DNA of 64,000 bases, from the NCBI RefSeq assembly GCF_046119375.1, contig NW_027362771.1, forward strand, positions 585,032,001 through 585,096,000, given 5' to 3'. Positions 19,918-62,962 of the stretch are shown here, one piece after another; within the stretch, counting starts at the first letter, position 1, and every line of letters starts with the position of its first letter. The stretch is from Phyllobates terribilis. Taxonomy: Eukaryota. A program made the position numbers and the translations under genes. Below the pieces are notes generated by a model. That model made no database searches and had not been told where the DNA came from. It was given only the letters and a program-made list of their open reading frames with translations.

Positions 19918-21541
19918 CAGTACAGACCAAAAGTTTGGACACACCTTTAAAGATTTTTCTGTATTTTCATGACTATGAAAATTGTACACTCACACTGAAG
20001 GCATCAAAACTATGAATTAACACATGTGGAATTATATACTTAACAAAAAAGTGTGAAACAACTGAAAATATGTCTTATATTCTAGGTTCTTCAAAGTAGC
20101 CACCTTTTGCTTTGATGACTGCTTTGCACACTCTTGGCATTCTCTTGATGAGCTTCAAGAGGTAGTCACCGGAAATGGTTTTCACTTCACAGGTGAGCCC
20201 TGTCAGGTTTAATAAGTGGGATTTCTTGCCTTATAAATGGGGTTGGGACCATTAGTTGTGTTGTGCAGAAGTCTGGTTGATACACAGCTGATAGTCCTAC
20301 TGAATAGACTGTTAGAATTTGTATTATGGCAAGAAAAAAGCAGCTAAGTAAAGAAAAACGAGTGGCCATCATTACTTTAAGAAATGAAGGTCAGTCAGTC
20401 CGAAAAATTGGGAAAACTTTGAAAGTGTCCCCAAGTGCAGTTGCAAAAACCATCAAGCGCTACAAAGAAACTGGCTCACATGAAGACCGCCCCAAGAAAG
20501 GAAGACCAAGAGTCACCTCTGCTTCTGAGGATAAGTTTATCCGAGTCACCAGCCTCAGAAATCGCAGGTTAACAGCAGCTCAGATTAGAGACCAGGTCAA
20601 TGCCACACAGAGTTCTAGCAGCAGACACATCTCTTCAACAACTGTTAAGAGGAGACTTTGTGCAGCAGGCCTTCATGGTAAAATAGCTGCTAGGAAACCA
20701 CTGCTAAGGACAGGCAACAAGCAGAAGAGACTTGTTTGGGCTAAAGAACACAAGGAATGGACATTAGACCAGTGGAAATCTGTGCTTTGGTCTGATGAGT
20801 CCAAATTTGAGATCTTTGGTTCCAACCACCGTGTCTTTGTGCGACGCAGAAAAGGTGAACGGATGGACTCTACATGCCTGGTTCCCACCGTGAAGCATGG
20901 AGGAGGAGGTGTGATGGTGTGGGGGGGCTTTGCTGGTGACACTGTTGGGGATTTATTCAAAATTGAAGGCATACTGAACCAGCATGGCTACCACAGCATC
21001 TTGCAGCGGCATGCTATTCCATCCGGTTTGCGTTTAGTTGGACCATCATTTATTTTTCAACAGGACAATGACCCCAAACAAACCTCCAGGCTGTGTAAGG
21101 GCTATTTGACCAAGCAGGAGAGTGATGGGGTGCTACGCCAGATGACCTGGCCTCCACAGTCACCAGACCTGAACCCAATCGAGATGGTTTGGGGTGAGCT
21201 GGACCGCAGAGTGAAGGCAAAAGGGCCAACAAGTGCTAAGCATCTCTGGGAACTCCTTCAAGATTGTTGGAAGACCATTTCCGGTGACTACCTCTTGAAG
21301 CTCATCAAGAGAATGCCAAGAGTGTGCAAAGCAGTCATCAAAGCAAAAGGTGGCTACTTTGAAGAACCTAGAATATAAGACATATTTTCAGTTGTTTCAC
21401 ACTTTTTTGTTAAGTATATAATTCCACATGTGTTAATTCATAGTTTTGATGCCTTCAGTGTGAATGTACAATTTTCATAGTCATGAAAATACAGAAAAAT
21501 CTTTAAATGAGAAGGTGTGTCCAAACTTTTGGTCTGTACTG
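19918..21541 (+). mobile_element. Full-length Tc1-like transposon, DD38E (Intruder-type)
   Basis: TA TSDs at 19916-17 and 21542-43. ~265-bp TIRs (19918-20179 and 21274-21541) start CAGTACAGACCAAAAGTTTGGACACACC. They differ by one 6-bp indel and very few substitutions. Confidence 0.95.
20326..21378 (+). CDS. Tc1-family transposase, 350 aa, uninterrupted, DD38E
   Basis: Paired-like HTH with GRPR, plus WSDE, VKHGGG-WG, QQDND and SPDLNPIE motifs. There are 38 residues between the second catalytic D and the E (counted). Confidence 0.93.
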   Translation: MARKKQLSKEKRVAIITLRNEGQSVRKIGKTLKVSPSAVAKTIKRYKETGSHEDRPKKGRPRVTSASEDKFIRVTSLRNRRLTAAQIRDQVNATQSSSSRHISSTTVKRRLCAAGLHGKIAARKPLLRTGNKQKRLVWAKEHKEWTLDQWKSVLWSDESKFEIFGSNHRVFVRRRKGERMDSTCLVPTVKHGGGGVMVWGGFAGDTVGDLFKIEGILNQHGYHSILQRHAIPSGLRLVGPSFIFQQDNDPKQTSRLCKGYLTKQESDGVLRQMTWPPQSPDLNPIEMVWGELDRRVKAKGPTSAKHLWELLQDCWKTISGDYLLKLIKRMPRVCKAVIKAKGGYFEEPRI

Positions 21542-31978: not shown

Positions 31979-46119
<14,141 letters not shown>

Positions 46120-48641: not shown

Positions 48642-50167
48642 ATCACATTAATGACCTGAAAAAAAAAGGGTTAAACACCCAGCCGACGCGTTTCAGGCCC
48701 ATTGCATAGAGCAGCACGTAGTACAAGGTCGACATATAATCCATATGAAAAAGAAAGAACAGCTGCAGTCCGATCTATGGAAAAGCAACATTGACCGTAG
48801 AAAAAAGCGGCTCTCGCCACCTAGAACAAAATAGCTCTTAGCTAAGTCCTTACGGGCGCAGTCAGACACCGTATAGATAGGACCGCAGTGCACGGACTGG
48901 CTGGCGGCTCTCCCGGCCTGAGCGTGACTGCTTCATGTATTTCTACGCAGCTGTCACACTGTAGTCTGGAGAGCAGACTTCCAGTCCGTGCACTGCAGTG
49001 CGATCCTTGTCTGAGACATACGGCTGTCTGATTCATCCCTTAAAATGCAACCTGTAGGGCACACATCACTTTTGGCATTTGGCCCTCTATACTACATGTG
49101 CAGGGATACAATTCATATACCATTTAATATGGTAAACAGAATCATGATTACAACTTTTCCTATTAGGGGTTGTCCAGGCTTGGGGTGCAAGCATTCAGTT
49201 ACTCTGTGACTGCCGACTTGTTAATCCTCACACTGCGCGCGGTCAGGACTCTTTGGTACGGGCAAGCTCGTGACCGCAAGTATGTGATTTGTAGACTTCC
49301 AGCCACGTTACGACTAGATGTGTCCGGCGTCACTCAGTACATCTAGTTGGCATGTGACCGCATATATGCCAATCCCATACTTGCAGGCACACGCCTACCC
49401 ACTCCTTACTCAAGGTTTTGACAAGGTGGGGTCCCGTTCAGTGATCTGATCTGCAGATATTTGAGTCGGGGTGTCGCAGTACTTACAGCACCAGTGAAAG
49501 GGCTGGCTGATCATCTAGGTAGCCAAACCAGCCCCCTTCTCTGAATGCATTTGCCATGACGACAGTGGCTACTGCACCTTTTGGTTCTTGGGTTATGTCT
49601 GAATCCTGGAGGTGAGAAATGAAGATCTGAAAGCTGAGATAATGGATGCGCATAAGTAAGTTGTATTTTTTTGTGTTTTTTTTTTTTTTATTTTTTTTAA
49701 TTTAAGGTTACAGTCACACATTTGTTTCACAGACCAGGTATAGAATGTGATTTTTATACCCTCAGTGGGGTCTCCTGACCTGAACTCGAAATCCCCCTAT
49801 CCTGGGAATAGACCGTAATTTCTGGACTGGCCACTGTTTTCCTGACCTAACCTCGCCAGCCTCGTGGATGTGGCTGCAGCTGGCAGGGGCTCCGCCGCCA
49901 GTCCGGCATCATGGGCCATAAAACATGGGCCTATGAGTGCCCTAAATATACAACAAATTTATGCCCAACATATAGTAACTTGTATTATTGCAGAATGAGT
50001 GTAAAGGTAAATGACATGGCGGTATAATTTATGAAAAAAATAACATTCGGAAATAGTTCTGTCCAATTGGCGTTACTTTAACATAAAAGGGGCAACAGAA
50101 TCCCTGCCTGGGGTGGTGAGCACGTGTGGACAGAGCCAACCTTGGGTAATGGAGATTCCCTGGACTA

Positions 50168-51428
50168 GGCATGGTGGAGCAGGAGCTACTGGCCATGAAG
50201 AAGAACTAGGTATGGCAGAGAAGTGACTACTGGGCATGAAGAAGGACTTAGGCATGGTGGAGCAGTGACTACCGGCCATGAAAAAGAACTAGGCATGGTG
50301 GAGCAGTGACTACTGGCCATGACGGAGCAGTGACTACTGGCCATGAAGAAGGACAGGGCATGACGCAGCAGTGACTACCGGTCATGAAGAAGGATTAGGC
50401 ATGGTGGAGCAGTGACTACCGGCCATGAAGAAGGACTAGGCATGGTGGAGCATTGACTCCTGGCCATGAAGAAGGACTAGGCATGGCGAAGCAGTGACTA
50501 CCGGCCATGAAAAAGGACTAGGCATGCTGGAGCAGTGCCTACTGGCCATGAAGAAGGACTGGGCATGACGCAGCAGTGACTACTGGTCATGAAGAAGGAT
50601 TAGGCATGGTGGAGCAGTGACTACCGGCCATGAAGAAGGACTGGGCATGACGGAGCAGTGACTACTGGCCATGAAGAAGGACTGGGCATGACGGAGCAGT
50701 GACTACTGGCCATGAAGAAGGACTGGGCATGACGGAGCAGTGACTATTGGCCATGACGGAGCAGTGACTACTGGCCATGAAGAAGGACAGGGCATGACGC
50801 AGCAGTGACTACCGGTCATGAAGAAGGATTAGGCATGGTGGAGCAGTGACTACCGGCCATGAAGAAGGACTAGGCATGGTGGAGCATTGACTCCTGGCCA
50901 TGAAGAAGGACTAGGCATGGCGAAGCAGTGACTACCGGCCATGAAAAAGGACTAGGCATGCTGGAGCAGTGCCTACTGGCCATGAAGAAGGACTGGGCAT
51001 GACGCAGCAGTGACTACTGGTCATGAAGAAGGATTAGGCATGGTGGAGCAGTGACTACCGGCCATGAAGAAGGACTGGGCATGACGAAGCAGTGACTACT
51101 GGGCATGACGGAGCAGTGACTACTGGCCATGAAGAAGGACTGGGCATGACACAGCAGTGACTACCGGCCATGAAGGAGGACTGGGCATGACGGAGCAGTG
51201 ACTACTGGCCATGAAGAAGGACTGGGCATGACGGAGCAGTGACTACTGGCCATGAAGAAGGATTAGGCATGGTGGAGCAGTGACTACCGGCCATGAAGAA
51301 GGACTAGGCATGGCGAAGCAGTGACTATTGGCCATGAAAAAGGACTAGACATGGTGGAGGAGTGACTACCGGTCATGAAGAAGGACTAGGCATGATGGAA
51401 CAGTGACTACCGGCCATGAAGGACTAGG
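50168..51428. repeat. 41-bp tandem array (~30 units) with a 434-bp higher-order duplication
   Basis: Unit gaagaaggactaggcatggtggagcagtgactaccggccat. The diagnostic variant ggacagggcatgacgcagc occurs at 50351 and 50785. Confidence 0.93.
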
Positions 51429-52099
51429 TTGCTGCATAGAAGATCTGCACGGCCCAAGATGGGAGCGAATGATCTGCTCCAGCCAGGGACACTGATTATG
51501 ACCTATGGATGATGATCCTTCATGTGGACCAGAATATTCAGTGCTTCATAGATATAGGCAGGGTGGTGTCTATGGCACAGTGGTCTGGTATGTCTCCCAT
51601 GAAATATGAAGTATGTGACCTACATCCCTGAGAAAGTTGTAAAAAGCAGCCATTATATCTACTGCTGTTCTAGGCCCCAGTACAGGAGTACGGACCGGTC
51701 ATAGGTCTAAGCCAAACTCAGCACCCACATATGCTGAGTACAAGCTGCGGAGTTGGGGTCGGGGTCCCTGCGGCCGGTCTGGACATTGCCGTCTGTACTC
51801 AGACCGTGAATGTCGGATGTGTGATACCCTGGCCACATGTTGCCACCGATATGGCTGCTGTAAGTCCAGCTCATTATCTGCAGGCCGATTTGCTGTTTGT
51901 TTATCTCTTAAAAATGATGAATTCGTTTGACAAATCCGTGGCGTAAATATGTGCCAAGTGTGAATTCGGCCTTATGGAGGTGTCTGGGTCCGCCAGCTCG
52001 TAATGTCCTTCATGGCATCTCTGCTGGAGAGTTATTATGTTGTGCCAAGTTTAGGGCCTAAAATCTACAGGTGACAACTCCACATGAGCAGTATAGGGG

Positions 52100-52132
<33 letters not shown>

Positions 52133-52151
52133 TGTATATGTATGTATGTAT

Positions 52152-53058
52152 TGTAAGGCAGCGCTAGTCATCATACTGGGGGTAACTCGCTTCGCTGCGT
52201 CAATCAATGCACACGTGCAATGTCTTTACCTTTTTCACACAGTGTTGCAGTTTATTATGGCACTTCATAAACCGCTGTTCACACACAGTTCATCTTAGTC
52301 CGCCACCGGCAGGTTTACACACAAACAATTCATGAGCCAAGTGGCACACCGGCCCACTTGCTCCAGGGTACAGCTTACGGCAAGGTAATAAAGTAGCAAT
52401 GTTCATATCACAATGTCCATATAGCACCGGGTATTACCTTTGCCAGGTATAGCTGTCTCAGTCCGTTACTCTGCCACCACTGTGGCTCTGCGGCTTCCCA
52501 GGTAGGGGTCTCCAGCCGTCGTTCCCTCAAAGGCCACTGACATCCACACAGGATCCAGGCTCTGCCTTCCAGGAGTCTTACTCAAGCCGGCTCTCCCTCA
52601 AAGGCCACTGACATCCGCACAGGATCCAGGCTCGACCTTTCAGGTACCAGGCTTCACTTCAAAGCCGCTGCCTTCCAAGGCCACTAGCATCCGCACAGGA
52701 TCTAGTCTTTGCCTTCAGGCTGCCAGGCTTCACGGTATCCCGGTATCCCACACACATGGGGAACAGGCCTCACGCCTCTCACACCGAACACACCTGTCTC
52801 AAATTAAGCAGGTTTATATATGCTGTGCACAGACAGCCTCATACTGACAGGACCTTGCTGATGTCACAGTCATGTGATCAGTCAGCTGTGTGTATAGGTC
52901 CTGTGTGCTGTCCCAGTCATGTATACAGAGCTTTACTGTGCATGCAGGACCTGGGTGATGTCACAGTCATGTGACCAGTCAGATAAAGGGGAAGGTACAT
53001 GGTCCAGTAAGCACATCCTGGACCATTTACAGTAATGCTAGCAACCTGCTGCATTACA
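52152..53058 (-). repeat. 3' LTR (907 bp)
   Basis: TG...CA ends. Minus-strand TATATAAA (~52812-52820) and AATAAA (52251-52256). Confidence 0.95.
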
Positions 53059-53076
53059 TATCCCCCCTCTCTGTTC
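53059..53076 (-). other. Polypurine tract
   Basis: Minus strand GAACAGAGAGGGGGGATA immediately precedes the 3' LTR start TGTAATG. Confidence 0.85.
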
Positions 53077-53159
53077 AAACTTGTGGGGTTGAACACATAA
53101 TATACACAATAACATTATAACCCCCAGCTCACATATAGACCATGAACTTTACAATTGTG

Positions 53160-55883
53160 CTACTCAGCCCCTGGAACCTTAGTCAATGACATTAGCCCAT
53201 TCCTTAGGGACCTACCATTTGTCACTGTCACTGACTTCGTCAGGTCACCTTTCCGGGTTGTAACTTTGTCAGGTCTCCCCCGCTCCCAGCGGTCAATCAA
53301 AACCCTGTCAGGTCTTCCCCGCTCCCAGCGGTCAATACAGCAGCGCGACTCGCATGCCCCGGTATCTAAGGTCCGGTTCGACTCCGTACTGTCCCGTCCT
53401 CTATTGGGTCGTTTGTATGGGCTGCTCAAACCGGAGTTACTGGAGGTCTCACTACCTCTAAACCCACGCCCACTACTCTCAGGACATCCTAAAAGGTCCC
53501 TAACTTCAGCTGTAGCTGTTCTGTTATTTAGGCGGCCCTTTCTCTGTCGGGTCTCACTATTTCTAGACGGCTTCCATCTTCTGCTGCTCAGATGATGCTG
53601 TCTATCTACTCGCAGTCTAGCGAGATTCAATTGTTCTACCTCCTGCAGGCAGGTCACTCGGTACTCAATCAGCATGCGTATATATTCTAGGCTTTCTTCT
53701 GTTCCTACCGCGGAAAAGGACACCATGCCGTCTTTGTCTGGTATCCAGTCCTGTTGATCACGTGGACTGCTTACTTTCACCACACCAGACTTCTTGACCA
53801 TCATCTGCATGGCTCGACCGCTTCTCCCAATGAGCTTTCTCACCAGAACATGAGGCACCCGGATGACCTCTTCACGCATACTGTGAGCTTTTCTCCTAAG
53901 CTCCAGTTGTCTAACGGCTTGTTCCGTCTTCAACAGGAGAAACCGCTTCGTGCGAACACATCGCCAGTGCATGTCACTTAGGATAGCCACCCTCTTCACT
54001 GTGACTTTGGTCGTGGACAGGACCACCAGCTGTTTAGTTTCTGAGGTCAAGTAGACCTTACAGGCTCCCACAGCCTTCTTAAACTCTTCATGCACGGACT
54101 CACGGGTGCATTCTTCCCTCAAGTCCTCGGGTACTTCTACGAGGCACTTGTACCGAGACGTTTCGGTCTCACCAGTGGTTTCCAGACGATCAACCAGCTC
54201 AGGTTTCAGGAACAACTGACTTCCAGCTTCTTCACCCTGGATGCTTCCCCTGAGCTGACTCACAGCTACCACTTCACAACTTTTCGTCTTGACCACCTCC
54301 ACTTCACCTTTATCTTCCAACACCATACTTTTAGCTCTCCTCAGGTCCTCCTTCTCAGGGTCTAAGGGAGTAAGTGCAACTTGTTTGCCTTTTCCCTTCT
54401 CCAAGGAGACCTCGTTCACCACGTGACACTTTGCTAGGCGACCTTTGAGCTCTAAAACTTCTCCTTCCAGCTCAGTTACTCGCCTCTCAGCGGCCCGTCT
54501 CTGAAGCTCTTCCTGCTTCAACTGCTCTTCCAGCAGCAGAGCTCTCTCAGACCTCTCCGTCTCCAATGTGCCCACTCGGCGCTCAATAGCCAGTCTCTCA
54601 CGCTTCTCTTGCGTCCACTGGGTTTGTAGCAACTCCTTGAGCTCCCTGATCTCGGCTCTTACTTCCACCGAATCATCCAAGCTCGCATCACTCGAGGAGG
54701 TATCTGTTTCACACCTCCCCTCACCAGCGGCCAACTCCTGGCCCTGGTCTGTGGCTTCTCTGACGGACTCCTCCATCTTTTTCCGCTCAGCTTCCATCTT
54801 GCTGACTGTTTCTTTAAGGCACGTCTCCGCCCTCTGGAGAGTATCACAGGACATCTGTAGCTCCTTCACCTGAGCTTCCAGATCTAGGGTCTTTCCACGG
54901 AGACCATCATTCTCCTCACGGGTGTCTTGCAGAGTGGTCTCAACCACTTGGCGCACTTGCTCTGCACCCGCCTTATCCTCCTCTAGTTTTTCCTTCACCT
55001 TGAGGAGATCTTCATAATCTCTCTTACTCTGTTGCAGTTCCCTACTGCGTTCACTACACACCTTCTTGGAGTCACACAGCTCCTGGTTGAGCTGTTTGCG
55101 CAGTCGTTCTAGGATTTGTTCACGTCCAGAAACACCATCCTGCCGCGCCTCCTTCTCAAGCTTCAACTGCAAAACCTCTTCCTTGATTTTGCGGCGGTCC
55201 TCCTTAATTGCGTAGAACATTTCCTTCCAATGGTTAATTTCCGCGTTGCTTCCCTCCACGTCTCGCTGCCAGTTCCTCATAACCTGGTATATTTTCTGCT
55301 GTTCAGACTCCAGGTTCAGCTGGTCTGCGGACACGTCACTCTGACACTGTTGCCTGATAGGCTCCAGTTCCTGGTCATGACTGGCCACCTTCTCTTTCGG
55401 GTCTGTCAGATCCTGATCCGTCAGTCTCAGTACCGTACCGGAGGTTGCTACTGGAAACGTCACCTCCTCTTCTACCTCTAAAGGAGGATCCACACTTGAA
55501 GCATAGGCACACAGTACTACATTCTTTTTATTTTCATTTTCAGCCAAGTCTACAGGAGCAACCTTTTTGTGGCCCTTGCGCCGTCTACGAGATGGGGACT
55601 CTCTCACCTCGTCTAGCCCCTCCTGACTGAACTCACTTTTTACTTTCATAGTGTCACAGTCAGCTACGGGGTCTGTGTCACTACCCATGGTGTTGTGGAC
55701 TAACAGGTCACCTCCCACTTTGACTTCACCCCCTTCTACTGGAGTTACCCCGTTATCAACGGTCACATTGTCATTTTTAGGAGGCACCAACCCACCAACA
55801 GTAACAATTTTCAGTTTTCTACACTCCACACTCGTGAAAATCCACCCCTTTTTTAGACTCCGCCCCCTTTTTAACAACCACAC
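53160..55883 (-). CDS. Chimeric cargo ORF: coiled coil (cingulin-like) + FXR1-derived KH0/KH2/C-terminal fragment; 907 codons open (842 aa from the first ATG at 55688)
   Basis: Open with no introns. aa ~577-762 align with recalled FXR1 (VPEDLRE, FKKAVGAC, TVKRV.ILSDMH, K.IGRSG...KSGVV, DGMV, LQEVEQL). aa ~831-846 DSTESNRTLDTGACES matches FXR1 DNTESDQTADTDASES. aa ~284-385 align without gaps to the recalled cingulin rod. Confidence 0.85.
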   Translation of the reverse strand: MWLLKRGRSLKKGWIFTSVECRKLKIVTVGGLVPPKNDNVTVDNGVTPVEGGEVKVGGDLLVHNTMGSDTDPVADCDTMKVKSEFSQEGLDEVRESPSRRRRKGHKKVAPVDLAENENKKNVVLCAYASSVDPPLEVEEEVTFPVATSGTVLRLTDQDLTDPKEKVASHDQELEPIRQQCQSDVSADQLNLESEQQKIYQVMRNWQRDVEGSNAEINHWKEMFYAIKEDRRKIKEEVLQLKLEKEARQDGVSGREQILERLRKQLNQELCDSKKVCSERSRELQQSKRDYEDLLKVKEKLEEDKAGAEQVRQVVETTLQDTREENDGLRGKTLDLEAQVKELQMSCDTLQRAETCLKETVSKMEAERKKMEESVREATDQGQELAAGEGRCETDTSSSDASLDDSVEVRAEIRELKELLQTQWTQEKRERLAIERRVGTLETERSERALLLEEQLKQEELQRRAAERRVTELEGEVLELKGRLAKCHVVNEVSLEKGKGKQVALTPLDPEKEDLRRAKSMVLEDKGEVEVVKTKSCEVVAVSQLRGSIQGEEAGSQLFLKPELVDRLETTGETETSRYKCLVEVPEDLREECTRESVHEEFKKAVGACKVYLTSETKQLVVLSTTKVTVKRVAILSDMHWRCVRTKRFLLLKTEQAVRQLELRRKAHSMREEVIRVPHVLVRKLIGRSGRAMQMMVKKSGVVKVSSPRDQQDWIPDKDGMVSFSAVGTEESLEYIRMLIEYRVTCLQEVEQLNLARLRVDRQHHLSSRRWKPSRNSETRQRKGRLNNRTATAEVRDLLGCPESSGRGFRGSETSSNSGLSSPYKRPNRGRDSTESNRTLDTGACESRCCIDRWERGRPDRVLIDRWERGRPDKVTTRKGDLTKSVTVTNGRSLRNGLMSLTKVPGAE

Positions 55884-56154
55884 CGGCAGGGTAATTTTTA
55901 CACAAAAAATCTGCAGTAGTCTTAGGACTCAGTTCACAACATCTCTTACCACCTCCCCGGGCACTCTGGGACAACACTGGCGCCCCCGGAGAGTCCATAG
56001 AATGGTCCACTGCAGCCATTCCATATGGTGCCCACAGCTCCTGCGGTTCCTGCACCATGTCCAGAAAAAGTTTCCCAAATACCTGCTCCGGTCCCAACCG
56101 GTCCTTCAACCGCTCAATAGCTCCAGACAGATCTGCTGCTTTGCTCACAGCCAT
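55819..56154 (-). CDS. 111-aa upstream ORF overlapping the cargo ORF in another frame (possible N-terminal part of it)
   Basis: ATG at 56154 lies ~230 nt after the 5' LTR. It overlaps the main ORF across A/G homopolymer runs. Confidence 0.45.
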   Translation of the reverse strand: MAVSKAADLSGAIERLKDRLGPEQVFGKLFLDMVQEPQELWAPYGMAAVDHSMDSPGAPVLSQSARGGGKRCCELSPKTTADFLCKNYPAGVVVKKGAESKKGVDFHECGV

Positions 56155-56363: not shown

Positions 56364-56381
56364 GCCCGCACTCTCGAACCA
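56364..56381 (-). other. Primer-binding-site-like sequence (atypical)
   Basis: TGGTTCGAGAGTGCGGGC starts 2 nt after the end of the 5' LTR. Confidence 0.55.
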
Positions 56382-56383
56382 TA

Positions 56384-57292
56384 TGTAAGGCAGCGCTAGT
56401 CATCATACTGGGGGTAACTCGCTTCGCTGCGTCAATCAATGCACACGTGCAATGTCTTTACCTTTTTCACACAGTGTTGCAGTTTATTATGGCACTTCAT
56501 AAACCGCTGTTCACACACAGTTCATCTTAGTCCGCCACCGGCAGGTTTACACACAAACAATTCATGAGCCAAGTGGCACACCGGCCCACTTGCTCCAGGG
56601 TACAGCTTACGGCAAGGTAATAAAGTAGCAATGTTCATATCACAATGTCCATATAGCACCGGGTATTACCTTTGCCGGGTATAGCTGTCTCAGTCCGTTA
56701 CTCCGCCACCACTGTGGCTCTGCGGCTTCCCAGGTAGGGGTCTCCAGCCGTCGTTCCCTCAAAGGCCACTGACATCCACACAGGATCCAGGCGCTGCCTT
56801 CCAGGACTCTTACTCAAGCCGGCTCTCCCTCAAAGGCCACTGACATCCGCACAGGATCCAGGCTCGACCTTTCAGGTACCAGGCTTCACTTCAAAGCCGC
56901 TGCCTTCCAAGGCCACCAGCATCCGCACAGGATCTAGTCTTTGCCTTCAGGCTGCCAGGCTTCACGGTATCACGGTATCCCACACACACATGGGGAACAG
57001 GCCTCACGCCTCTCACACCGAACACACCTGTCTCAAATTAAGCAGGTTTATATATGCTGTGCACAGACAGCCTCATACTGACAGGACCTTGCTGATGTCA
57101 CAGTCATGTGATCAGTCAGCTGTGTGTATAGGTCCTGTGTGCTGTCCCAGTCATGTATACAGAGCTTTACTGTGCATGCAGGACCTGGGTGATGTCACAG
57201 TCATGTGACCAGTCAGATAAAGGGGAAGGTACATGGTCCAGTAAGCACATCCTGGACCATTTACAGTAATGCTAGCAACCTGCTGCATTACA
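56384..57292 (-). repeat. 5' LTR (909 bp)
   Basis: Differs from the other LTR by about six substitutions and one CA indel (by eye). Confidence 0.95.
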
Positions 57293-57363
57293 GTATATAT
57301 ATATGAACAGTATAGGAACATCACAGGCTGTGTATATAGATATGTATGTGTATGTGTATATAT

Positions 57364-58793: not shown

Positions 58794-60419
58794 GCACCCC
58801 TATTAATCTTCAGCTTATTGTTTTATATAAATTGGTGTTTTTGCACCAGCTATTTCAGCTTGATATATGTAATAACTGTTGGACACAGTAATGGTTCTGC
58901 CTTGAAATGAGGTTTATTGTACTAACAGAAAATGTGCAATCTGCATTCAAACAAAATTTGACAGGTGCATAAGTATGGGCACCTCACCAGAAAAGTGACA
59001 TTAATATTAAGTAGATCCTCCTTTTGCAAAAATAACAGCCTCTAGTCGCTTCCTGTAGCTTTTAATGAGTTCCTGGATCCTGGATGAAGGTATTTTTGAC
59101 CATTCCTCTTTACAAAACAATTCCAGTTCAGTTAAGTTTGATGGTCGCCGAGCATGGACAGCCCTCTTCAAATGATCCCACAGATGTTCAATGATATTCC
59201 GGTCTGGGGACTGGGATGGCCATTCCAGAACATTGTAATTGTTCCTCTGCATGAATGACTGAGTAGATTTGGAGCGGTGTTTTGGATCATTGTCTTGCTG
59301 AAAGATCCATCCCCTGCGTAACTTCAACTTTATCACCGATTCTTGAACATTATCGTCAAGAATCTGCTGATACTGAGTGGAATCCATGCGTCCCTCAACT
59401 TTAACAAGATTCCCGGTGCCGGCATTGGCCACACAGCCCCAAAGCATGATGGAACCTCCACCAAATTTTACTGTGGGTAGCAAGTGTTTTTCTTGGAATG
59501 CTGTGTTTTTTTGCCGCCATGCATAACGCCTTTTTGTATGACCAAACAACTCAATCTTGGTTTCATCAGTCCACAGGACCTTCTTCCAAAAAGAAATTGG
59601 CTTCTCCAAATGTGCTTTTGCATACCTCAGCCGACTCTGTTTGTGGCGTGCTTGCAGAAACGGCTTCTTTCGCATCACTCTCCCATACAGCTTCTCCTTG
59701 TGCAAAGTGCGTTGTATAGTTGACCGATGCACAGTGACACCATCTGCAGCAAGTTGATGCTGCAGCTCTCTGGAGGTGGTCTGAGGATTGTCCTTGACTG
59801 ATCTCACCATTCTTCTTCTCTGCCTTTCTGATGTTTTTCTTGGCCTGCCACTTCTGGCCTTAACAAGAACTGTCCCTGTGTTCTTCCATTTCCTTACTAT
59901 GTTCCTCACAGTGGAAACTGACAGGTTAAATCTCTGAGACAGCTTTTTGTATCCTTCCCCTGAACAACTATGTTGAATAACCTTTGTTTTCAGATCATTT
60001 GACAGTTGTTTTGAGGAGCCCATGATGCCACTCTTCAGTGGAGATTCAAACAGGAGAACAACTTGCAAGTGGCCACTTTAAGTAGCTTTTCTCATGATTG
60101 CATACACCTGGTTATGGAGTTCAAAGCTCAATGAGGTTACAAAACCAAAAAAAGTGCTGTAGTAAGTCAGTAAAAAGCAGGTAGGAGTATTTAAAACAAG
60201 AAAATGATAAGGGTGCCCATACTTATGCACCTGTCAAATTTTGTTTGAATGCAGATTGCACATTTTCTGTTAGTACAATAAACCTCATTTCAAGGCCGAA
60301 ACATTACTGTGTCCAACAGTTATTACATATATCAAAGTGAAATAGCTGTTGCAAAAACACCAATTTTTATAAAACATTAAGCTTAAGATTAATAGGGGTG
60401 CCCAAACTTTTTCATATAA

Positions 60420-62507: not shown

Positions 62508-62919
62508 ATGGCAAGTGCTCGGGAGGCAGAGTCTGATAACGACTCTGATGGGGAAACAGGAGAAGACCCTGAAAGACAAGCAATGGATTATGTCTCAAGG
62601 GTCCTAAGTACCGTGACGCTACAAGACAAAGCCAGGCGACAGCCGCACACTCTGCCTGTGGAAGCCCAGGATGGGATCCAGCATGGCGGCCTGGATCTGA
62701 AGAAGTCTCCTGTATCGGGGGAGGACGTAGAGGTGACGTCGCTGCTGTTACTTCTTCCCCTGGAGCTTATTTTGCACATTCTGTCGTTTCTGGAAGCACG
62801 GTTCATCCTCGGTGTCCTCCCCCTGGTGTGCCGCATGCTCCGAGATATCGTGTCACAGAAGGTAACCTGGAGGCTGAGGGTTCAGAAGAAGATCAGCTCC
62901 AGTTACCCCGTGGTGGAAC
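62508..62919 (+). CDS. FBXW9: F-box/WD repeat protein 9, first coding exon (gene continues right)
   Basis: Kozak ACCATGG at 62508. F-box LLLLPLELILHILSFLEARFILGVLPLVCRMLRDIVSQKVTWRLR...YPVVE matches recalled FBXW9. Donor GTGAGT at 62920. TNPO2-FBXW9 tandem synteny as in human. Confidence 0.9.
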
Positions 62920-62962
62920 GTGAGTTATAATCCTGCAATTCATTAACCTCTGCTAATACACA

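Follow-up and report, generated by a model that had tools for sequence, protein, structure and literature searches.

The window, as we call the whole analysed stretch of 64,000 nt of Phyllobates terribilis DNA, contains on its minus strand a young LTR element of 5.1 kb that has two LTRs and carries neither gag nor pol. The 5′ LTR (56384..57292, bounded by TG...CA) has a TATA-like site near 57052 and an AATAAA near 56488, the 3′ LTR is located at 52152..53058, and a 4-bp target-site duplication, GTAT, flanks the element at 52148..52151 and 57293-57296; clean 4-bp duplications were observed for 11 of 13 other young copies as well. Between the two LTRs we found 6 mismatches in 906 aligned bases, which translates into an age of ~1.3 million years if the rate in PMC11152451 is applied. 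Two nucleotides after the 5′ LTR lies a primer-binding site (56364..56381, minus strand) that matches the tRNA-Ala(AGC) 3′ end imperfectly, and the polypurine tract region (53059..53095, minus strand) resembles its counterpart in L217, a SCAN-gag Gypsy element, with 91% identity over 47 nt that extend into the beginning of the LTR. The element has no integrase, a motif scan in six frames revealed neither a reverse transcriptase (RT) nor a zinc knuckle, and FXR1 domains are all that Pfam detects. TG...CA LTRs, primer site, polypurine tract, target-site duplication, lack of enzymes and dispersed young copies together mark the element as a non-autonomous LTR retrotransposon, while a search for retroviral gag, pol or env within it gave nothing that would make it an endogenous retrovirus. 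Outside the element, two full-length ORFs at 20326-21378 (plus strand) and 59007-60023 (minus strand) resemble Tc1/mariner transposases, short coding stretches at ~32900-38000 (plus strand) are reminiscent of transportin exons, and an ORF start at 62508-62930 (plus strand) holds a putative F-box-like motif. A 41-bp tandem repeat array was observed just beyond the 3′ LTR (~50160-51500).

Frame and domain reading between the LTRs gave a main ORF of 842 aa from its ATG (53160..55688, minus strand; open from 55928), which encodes, in this order, an N-terminus, a cingulin piece, a coiled-coil linker, the FXR1 domains KH0 and KH2 and remnants of the FXR1 tail. A further piece of 111 aa (55819..56154, minus strand) is the N-terminal part of what is a single ORF in the family, cut off by a frame break near 55830, upstream of the cingulin piece. 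The other 29 loci of the set L001-L030 lack the break, and a single frame of 985-1,019 aa was observed in all 12 young copies for which a start was located; a programmed frameshift between the 111-aa and the 842-aa frames was rejected, as the break is private to the window copy. The ORF N-terminus gave 0 matches among 1.84 billion representatives, no usable Atlas match and nothing above shuffles against the Gag of L217. The coiled-coil-like linker (54186..54728, minus strand), which is near-neutral in sequence, had no match in three FXR1-like proteins of Anomaloglossus.

Both FXR1-derived domains lie on the minus strand: a spliced KH0 (53897..54183, 66% nucleotide identity to host fxr1, a gene on C3) and KH2 with the following helix (53555..53879, 56%), in which the GxxG loop is kept, as it is in 47 of 48 copies. 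The FXR1 piece is intron-less like the cingulin piece and overall ~60% identical to host fxr1 at the nucleotide level. From the architecture of the FXR1/FMR1 family (tandem Tudor, KH0, KH1, KH2, RGG), KH0 and KH2 are present, whereas the Tudor domains are absent and KH1 has been deleted just before KH2. A structure model of the KH region has a mean pLDDT of 86 and matches FMRP KH0 at ~1 Å rmsd, with FXR1 relatives in the underlying alignment biasing it towards that fold. The KH2 domain of host FXR1 is reported to bind RNA and to mediate polysome association (PMC2722981). The three Anomaloglossus proteins (P0062, P0071 and P0076) are Tudor-less, diverged and cingulin-free. They share 12 derived residues with the FXR1 part of the element among 142 invariant columns, and the tree that joins them to it was flagged for long branches; they may be relatives of the element or belong to an independent FXR1-carrying mobile family.

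Our starting point was a 102-residue peptide at 55034-54729 on the minus strand, which a sequence-only reading had described as a gap-free match to the cingulin rod. The coordinates given there (54729..55034) are right, while the residue numbers (~284-385) are shifted by 65: the peptide corresponds to residues 219-320 of the 842-aa frame. The similarity had been put at about one third identity over ~70 aa to human cingulin. Against cingulin of the host (P0005) it is stronger, with 75 of 102 residues identical and, as described, no gaps. The alignment score was 375, compared to a mean of 75 and a maximum of 99 in 300 shuffles, and the other coiled coil of the ORF scored only 83 against host cingulin. 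Of 1,352 candidates in a protein search with residues 100-330, 20 matched: 17 bear the name cingulin, 2 are element-type proteins and 1 is unnamed but has the same Pfam label. Myosins were absent from the matches. The best generic coiled coil in the PDB was vimentin (E 0.011), and a cgnl1-like paralogue locus on C11, taken to be cgnl1, reached 24.6 bits and gave no blastn match. The host exons on C6 of genome G000 translate exactly to residues 550-1126 of the protein named Phyllobates terribilis cingulin, and in the nucleotide alignment to this gene four exon junctions are crossed exactly. Apart from the prior expectation that coiled coils cross-match weakly, nothing speaks for a generic coiled-coil resemblance, and nucleotide collinearity, four exact splice junctions, a search that yielded only cingulin, and negative paralogue and PDB controls make this explanation practically negligible. 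A cgnl1-like origin was ruled out along with it by the protein search, PDB, shuffles and paralogue locus. The caution that coiled coils give spurious matches is removed by the junctions, the collinearity, the shuffles and the two controls. The cingulin call had been ranked as less secure than that of FXR1, but cingulin is the closer of the two (84% against ~60% nucleotide identity).

The cingulin-derived region is larger than the peptide. We found that it extends over 54729..55432 on the minus strand, covers host residues 571-950 and is 84.4% identical to the host over 704 nt, so the end of the previously proposed capture holds but its start has to be moved upstream to 55432. The five blocks of the piece are collinear with the host, with 12, 30, 219 and 171 nt deleted in frame between them. 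Exon junctions lie at 55325, 55176, 54998 and 54791, and the host introns of 253, 6,347, 101 and 111 nt are exactly absent, which identifies the captured cingulin as a copy of spliced mRNA. The 102-residue peptide is the last of the blocks (54729..55034, minus strand, host residues ~849-950) and contains two of the junctions. It also holds the 3′ breakpoint of the capture at 54729, the position at which older copies part from mRNA-like contigs of host cingulin. In 26 older loci 959-1,172 nt of cingulin are present with 89.5-93.8% identity, beginning at about residue 555. As these copies are longer (~1.1 kb), the original insert would have measured ~1.19 kb and has since shrunk by in-frame deletions. 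Different copies retain different parts: L119 holds only the 5′ block and L175 mainly the 3′ block, and the two do not overlap. An apparent 14-nt deletion at the 3′ end of the insert in four copies turned out to be an alignment overrun past the breakpoint and was not counted. A functional cingulin paralogue, for which a globular head and a full rod under purifying selection would be expected, was rejected as well, because only rod residues 571-950 are present, with deletions, at a dN/dS of ~0.8-1.2. With 4 cgn and 6 fxr1 junctions, an intron-less copy of host mRNA internal to a two-LTR element, insert ends inside coding sequence, no poly(A) and no L1 hallmarks, the locus has the features of an LTR-mediated retrocopy. 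The view of the ORF as a two-gene chimera is thereby borne out, both pieces being spliced and joined in one frame between LTRs; what the sequence-only reading had missed is the high-copy mobile family and the differing selection on the two parts.

Junctions between LTR and primer site occur 643 times in the genome in exact and 1,477 times in relaxed form, compared to 0 in reversed controls. All of the first 30 exact junctions by position are accompanied by cingulin (29 within 1.5 kb, the last further on), and so are 15 of 20 variant junctions chosen from the first 100 listed, which makes 45 of 50 over both samples. The remaining 5 variant loci comprise three solo LTRs, one truncated copy and one copy with a large internal deletion. 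A cingulin-free ancestral copy, against which microhomology at the insert's switch points could be judged, was not found in these samples, and a further set of 20 loci all carry cingulin. At L049-L050 (G000:C1:1165.49-1165.50 Mb) we observed three head-to-tail copies that share LTRs and lie within one apparent GGCC target duplication; each of them was matched in a 1,017-aa open frame. Two gene models in the protein annotation, the ‘cingulin-like’ P0004 and the ‘uncharacterized’ P0003, are copies of the element, which may serve as a warning to annotators.

For analysis of selection on the ORF we used 48 copies (14 young, 14 older and 20 from the further locus set) and defined shared variants as those present in three or more copies, with private variants as the control. 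The values below have to be read with the composition of this set in mind: 41 of the 48 were obtained by protein searches with their bias towards open frames, the subfamily pairs are not independent and recombination is not modelled. Stops made up 1 of 600 shared but 31 of 917 private variants (p 3e-6, 48 copies), and 29 of 32 shared indels were in frame, compared to 40 of 79 private ones (p 7e-5). Within cingulin the ratio of non-synonymous to synonymous changes was the same in both classes (132/53 shared and 178/77 private, p 0.75), while stops were depleted there too (0 of 185 shared, 6 of 261 private, p 0.044). For the two KH domains we observed 51/51 shared against 116/49 private changes (p 0.001); KH0 alone was not significant in this comparison (p 0.25). 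Four of the six ORF segments were near neutral in the same test. In a comparison of the window copy with L098, dN/dS was 0.83 in cingulin, 0.43 in KH0 and 0.27 in KH2; calculated from fixed differences among five subfamilies, it was 0.79-1.20 in cingulin and 0-0.32 in the KH domains. Thus, the KH domains are under purifying selection (dN/dS ~0.1-0.4) while cingulin drifts (~0.8-1.2), and the neutral and the selected cargo in one frame provide an internal control.

The tRNA-Ala(AGC) primer site of the family is perfect in many older copies and in SCAN-gag Gypsy elements and imperfect in young copies; the youngest, still multiplying subfamilies keep an imperfect site although priming normally restores a perfect one. 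Gmr1-type Ty3/Gypsy elements have their integrase before the RT. This order is found in L217, in which SCAN, zinc knuckle and integrase precede the RT, and L217 shares with our element the primer site, the 2-nt spacer and the polypurine tract region but not the LTR body. The SCAN-type gag and integrase-before-RT pol that define Gmr1-type elements are present in L217 and absent from our element, and the Gmr1-type cis signals it does have (tRNA-Ala primer site, polypurine tract) argue for its being moved by such elements, not for membership. Gmr elements of frogs are the only ones in which SCAN has been reported (PMC4131045). From the shared priming signals and this restriction, a Gmr1-type Gypsy helper likely moves the element, with L217 itself sharing only the priming signals; several genome searches for a helper sharing the LTR body found none. 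The pol of L184 was discarded as a helper part since it lies outside the 3′ LTR of a family copy; L184 (G000:C1:68.24-68.25 Mb) represents another Gypsy element, located just beyond that LTR, and its pol frame comprises 1,056 aa. ARAGORN detected no tRNA in four of four loci, and a tRNA-Ala gene was found in the tandem array L216 (G000:C3:6.54-6.67 Mb), whose ~1.3-kb units, with at least ~100 of them listed, contain tRNA-Asn, -Ala and -Met.

The older copies share 3 of 7 cingulin residues found only in Phyllobates and 0 of 3 found in Dendrobates and Ranitomeya, and in a quick tree they group with Phyllobates cingulin at a support of 89. Both observations place the cingulin capture partway along the Phyllobates branch, as far as such residue sharing can indicate. 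The far greater divergence of FXR1 suggests that it was captured first and cingulin later, although part of this divergence could reflect rate. Contigs of the runs X17 and X19 (organism B) and X18 (organism C), which are presumed to be RNA, carry the trimmed chimera at ~90-95% identity to the window; one of them spans the leader into cingulin and another reaches from cingulin to the start of FXR1. The spliced host cingulin contigs of these runs differ from L098 at 135-136 of ~1,120 positions, with the G000 gene being 92.2% identical. At host position 616 (D616E), cingulin of B and C has D (judged by eye), while E is found in G000 and in 25 of 26 older copies. Should the capture be younger than the separation of this lineage from B and C, the element would have arrived in these two organisms later, by possible horizontal transfer or introgression of the chimera; the visible sites are few and host rates unequal, and contamination may be another source of the contigs.

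Taken together, a spliced piece of host cingulin, placed in frame upstream of an older FXR1 KH0-KH2 module, forms part of the only ORF of an enzyme-less LTR retrotransposon with a high copy number, and we consider it probable that it entered this element by template switching and persists in it as a passenger. According to this explanation, host mRNA would be brought in by a template switch of the reverse transcriptase in particles of a Gmr1-type Gypsy helper that uses tRNA-Ala as primer, following the model given for LTR-mediated retrocopies (PMC5131818). The chimeric protein would be made, and its KH module would act in cis by binding the RNA of the element itself or granules of the host FXR1 family, thereby favouring stability, translation or packaging of the element RNA; we infer action on its own RNA or granule as selection on a non-autonomous element most simply needs a benefit in cis. 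Cingulin would be kept only in frame, because the KH module downstream of it must be translated. A counterpoint to a pure passenger is that cingulin, present in 45 of the 50 junction-sampled loci, was never cleanly lost. Alternatively, the element may profit from the rod as a coiled coil that dimerises or acts as a spacer and multimerises the KH module; in this case its sequence would be free as long as some rod is there. Retention of cingulin in all 30 position-ordered copies and in 15 of the 20 of the second sample would agree with this, as would the in-frame deletions and the apparent displacement of any cingulin-free form by the one with cingulin. However, a single founder explains the universal presence, the dN/dS of ~1 equals the private-mutation control, L119 and L175 retain non-overlapping parts and the ORF has another coiled coil, and we regard a useful rod as unlikely.

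It is more improbable still that the protein does nothing and that the long frame only spares the genomic RNA from nonsense-mediated decay. Purging of stops and frameshifts along the whole ORF, together with four near-neutral segments out of six, is what one would expect from this, but the dN/dS of 0-0.4 confined to the two KH domains and the kept GxxG loop are left unexplained. The captured pieces might also act as RNA, with piRNAs of the element silencing host fxr1 (or cgn). Drosophila Fmr1 has been reported in the piRNA pathway (PMC5454977), such an action was proposed for Drosophila telomeric elements with captured nxf2, piwi or aub (PMC13534243), and the cingulin piece has retained 84-94% identity with the host. 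The FXR1 piece, however, is only ~60% identical, whereas almost no host-targeting piRNAs are described already at ~80% in the latter study, and selection acts on amino acids and not on nucleotide identity; we assign this explanation a very small probability. Another reading, which stays doubtful, goes further than the favoured explanation: the element would have domesticated a host gene, its own coding content being replaced by the trimmed FXR1 KH module for anti-silencing or RNA chaperoning and the cingulin rod serving as a scaffold, and the chimera would then have jumped to other poison-frog lineages whose cingulin lacks the marker change.

LTR-mediated gene capture in animals is usually seen as rare, low-copy debris, and here we observe many hundreds of copies with an ORF built largely from host parts, which record capture, trimming and selection stepwise. 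With this family one can test if captured host proteins raise the fitness of a transposon, and it directs attention to a part played by FXR1-family proteins in transposon control in the vertebrate germline. Our literature search gave nothing linking cingulin with an LTR retrotransposon or retrocopy and, judged by titles and abstracts, nothing on this element family; cingulin and FXR1 are absent from the main texts of three poison-frog genome papers, whose supplementary repeat libraries could hold the element. LTR-mediated capture of several genes is known; in the literature searched we found no high-copy mobile family whose captured RNA-binding module is selected at the protein level. The closest parallel are the LTR-mediated retrocopies of animals, in which partial spliced mRNAs lie between LTRs, chimeras arise from several parents and recopying is non-autonomous (Tan et al. 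2016, PMC5131818). Our element resembles them in its partial spliced pieces, its multi-gene chimera, its further non-autonomous copying and the template-switch model. The retrocopies described there are single loci or have few insertion sites, whereas we found ~640-1,480 junction-bearing copies in several subfamilies, and the frog element goes beyond those cases in that its open frame is selected and one captured module is under purifying selection.

A host RNA-binding domain inside an LTR element is also known from bird endogenous retroviruses, which have repeatedly captured the cold-shock domain and further domains of cellular origin (PMC12287698). Their classification as retroviruses rests on the RT, whereas in the frog element an RT is missing, no gag is recognisable, KH domains are accompanied by a second host gene and the signals are of the Gypsy type. 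With the Drosophila telomeric retrotransposons (PMC13534243) it shares a part of a host gene linked to RNA silencing that is fixed across the copies of a mobile element; these, however, are LINE-type with a proposed piRNA action, in contrast to protein-level selection and a far-diverged FXR1 in the frog. The likeness to Gmr1-type SCAN-gag Ty3/Gypsy elements such as L217 comprises the tRNA-Ala primer site, the 2-nt spacer and the polypurine tract region, but SCAN, zinc knuckle, integrase and RT are missing from our element and its N-terminus is unmatched to the L217 Gag. The acutely transforming retroviruses AEV and MH2 are helper-dependent as well, with two cellular genes in a defective genome and spliced host pieces fused in the first ORF. 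In contrast to these viruses, the frog element resides in the germline, has no env, is long-lived over many subfamilies and carries a cargo without a known role in growth.
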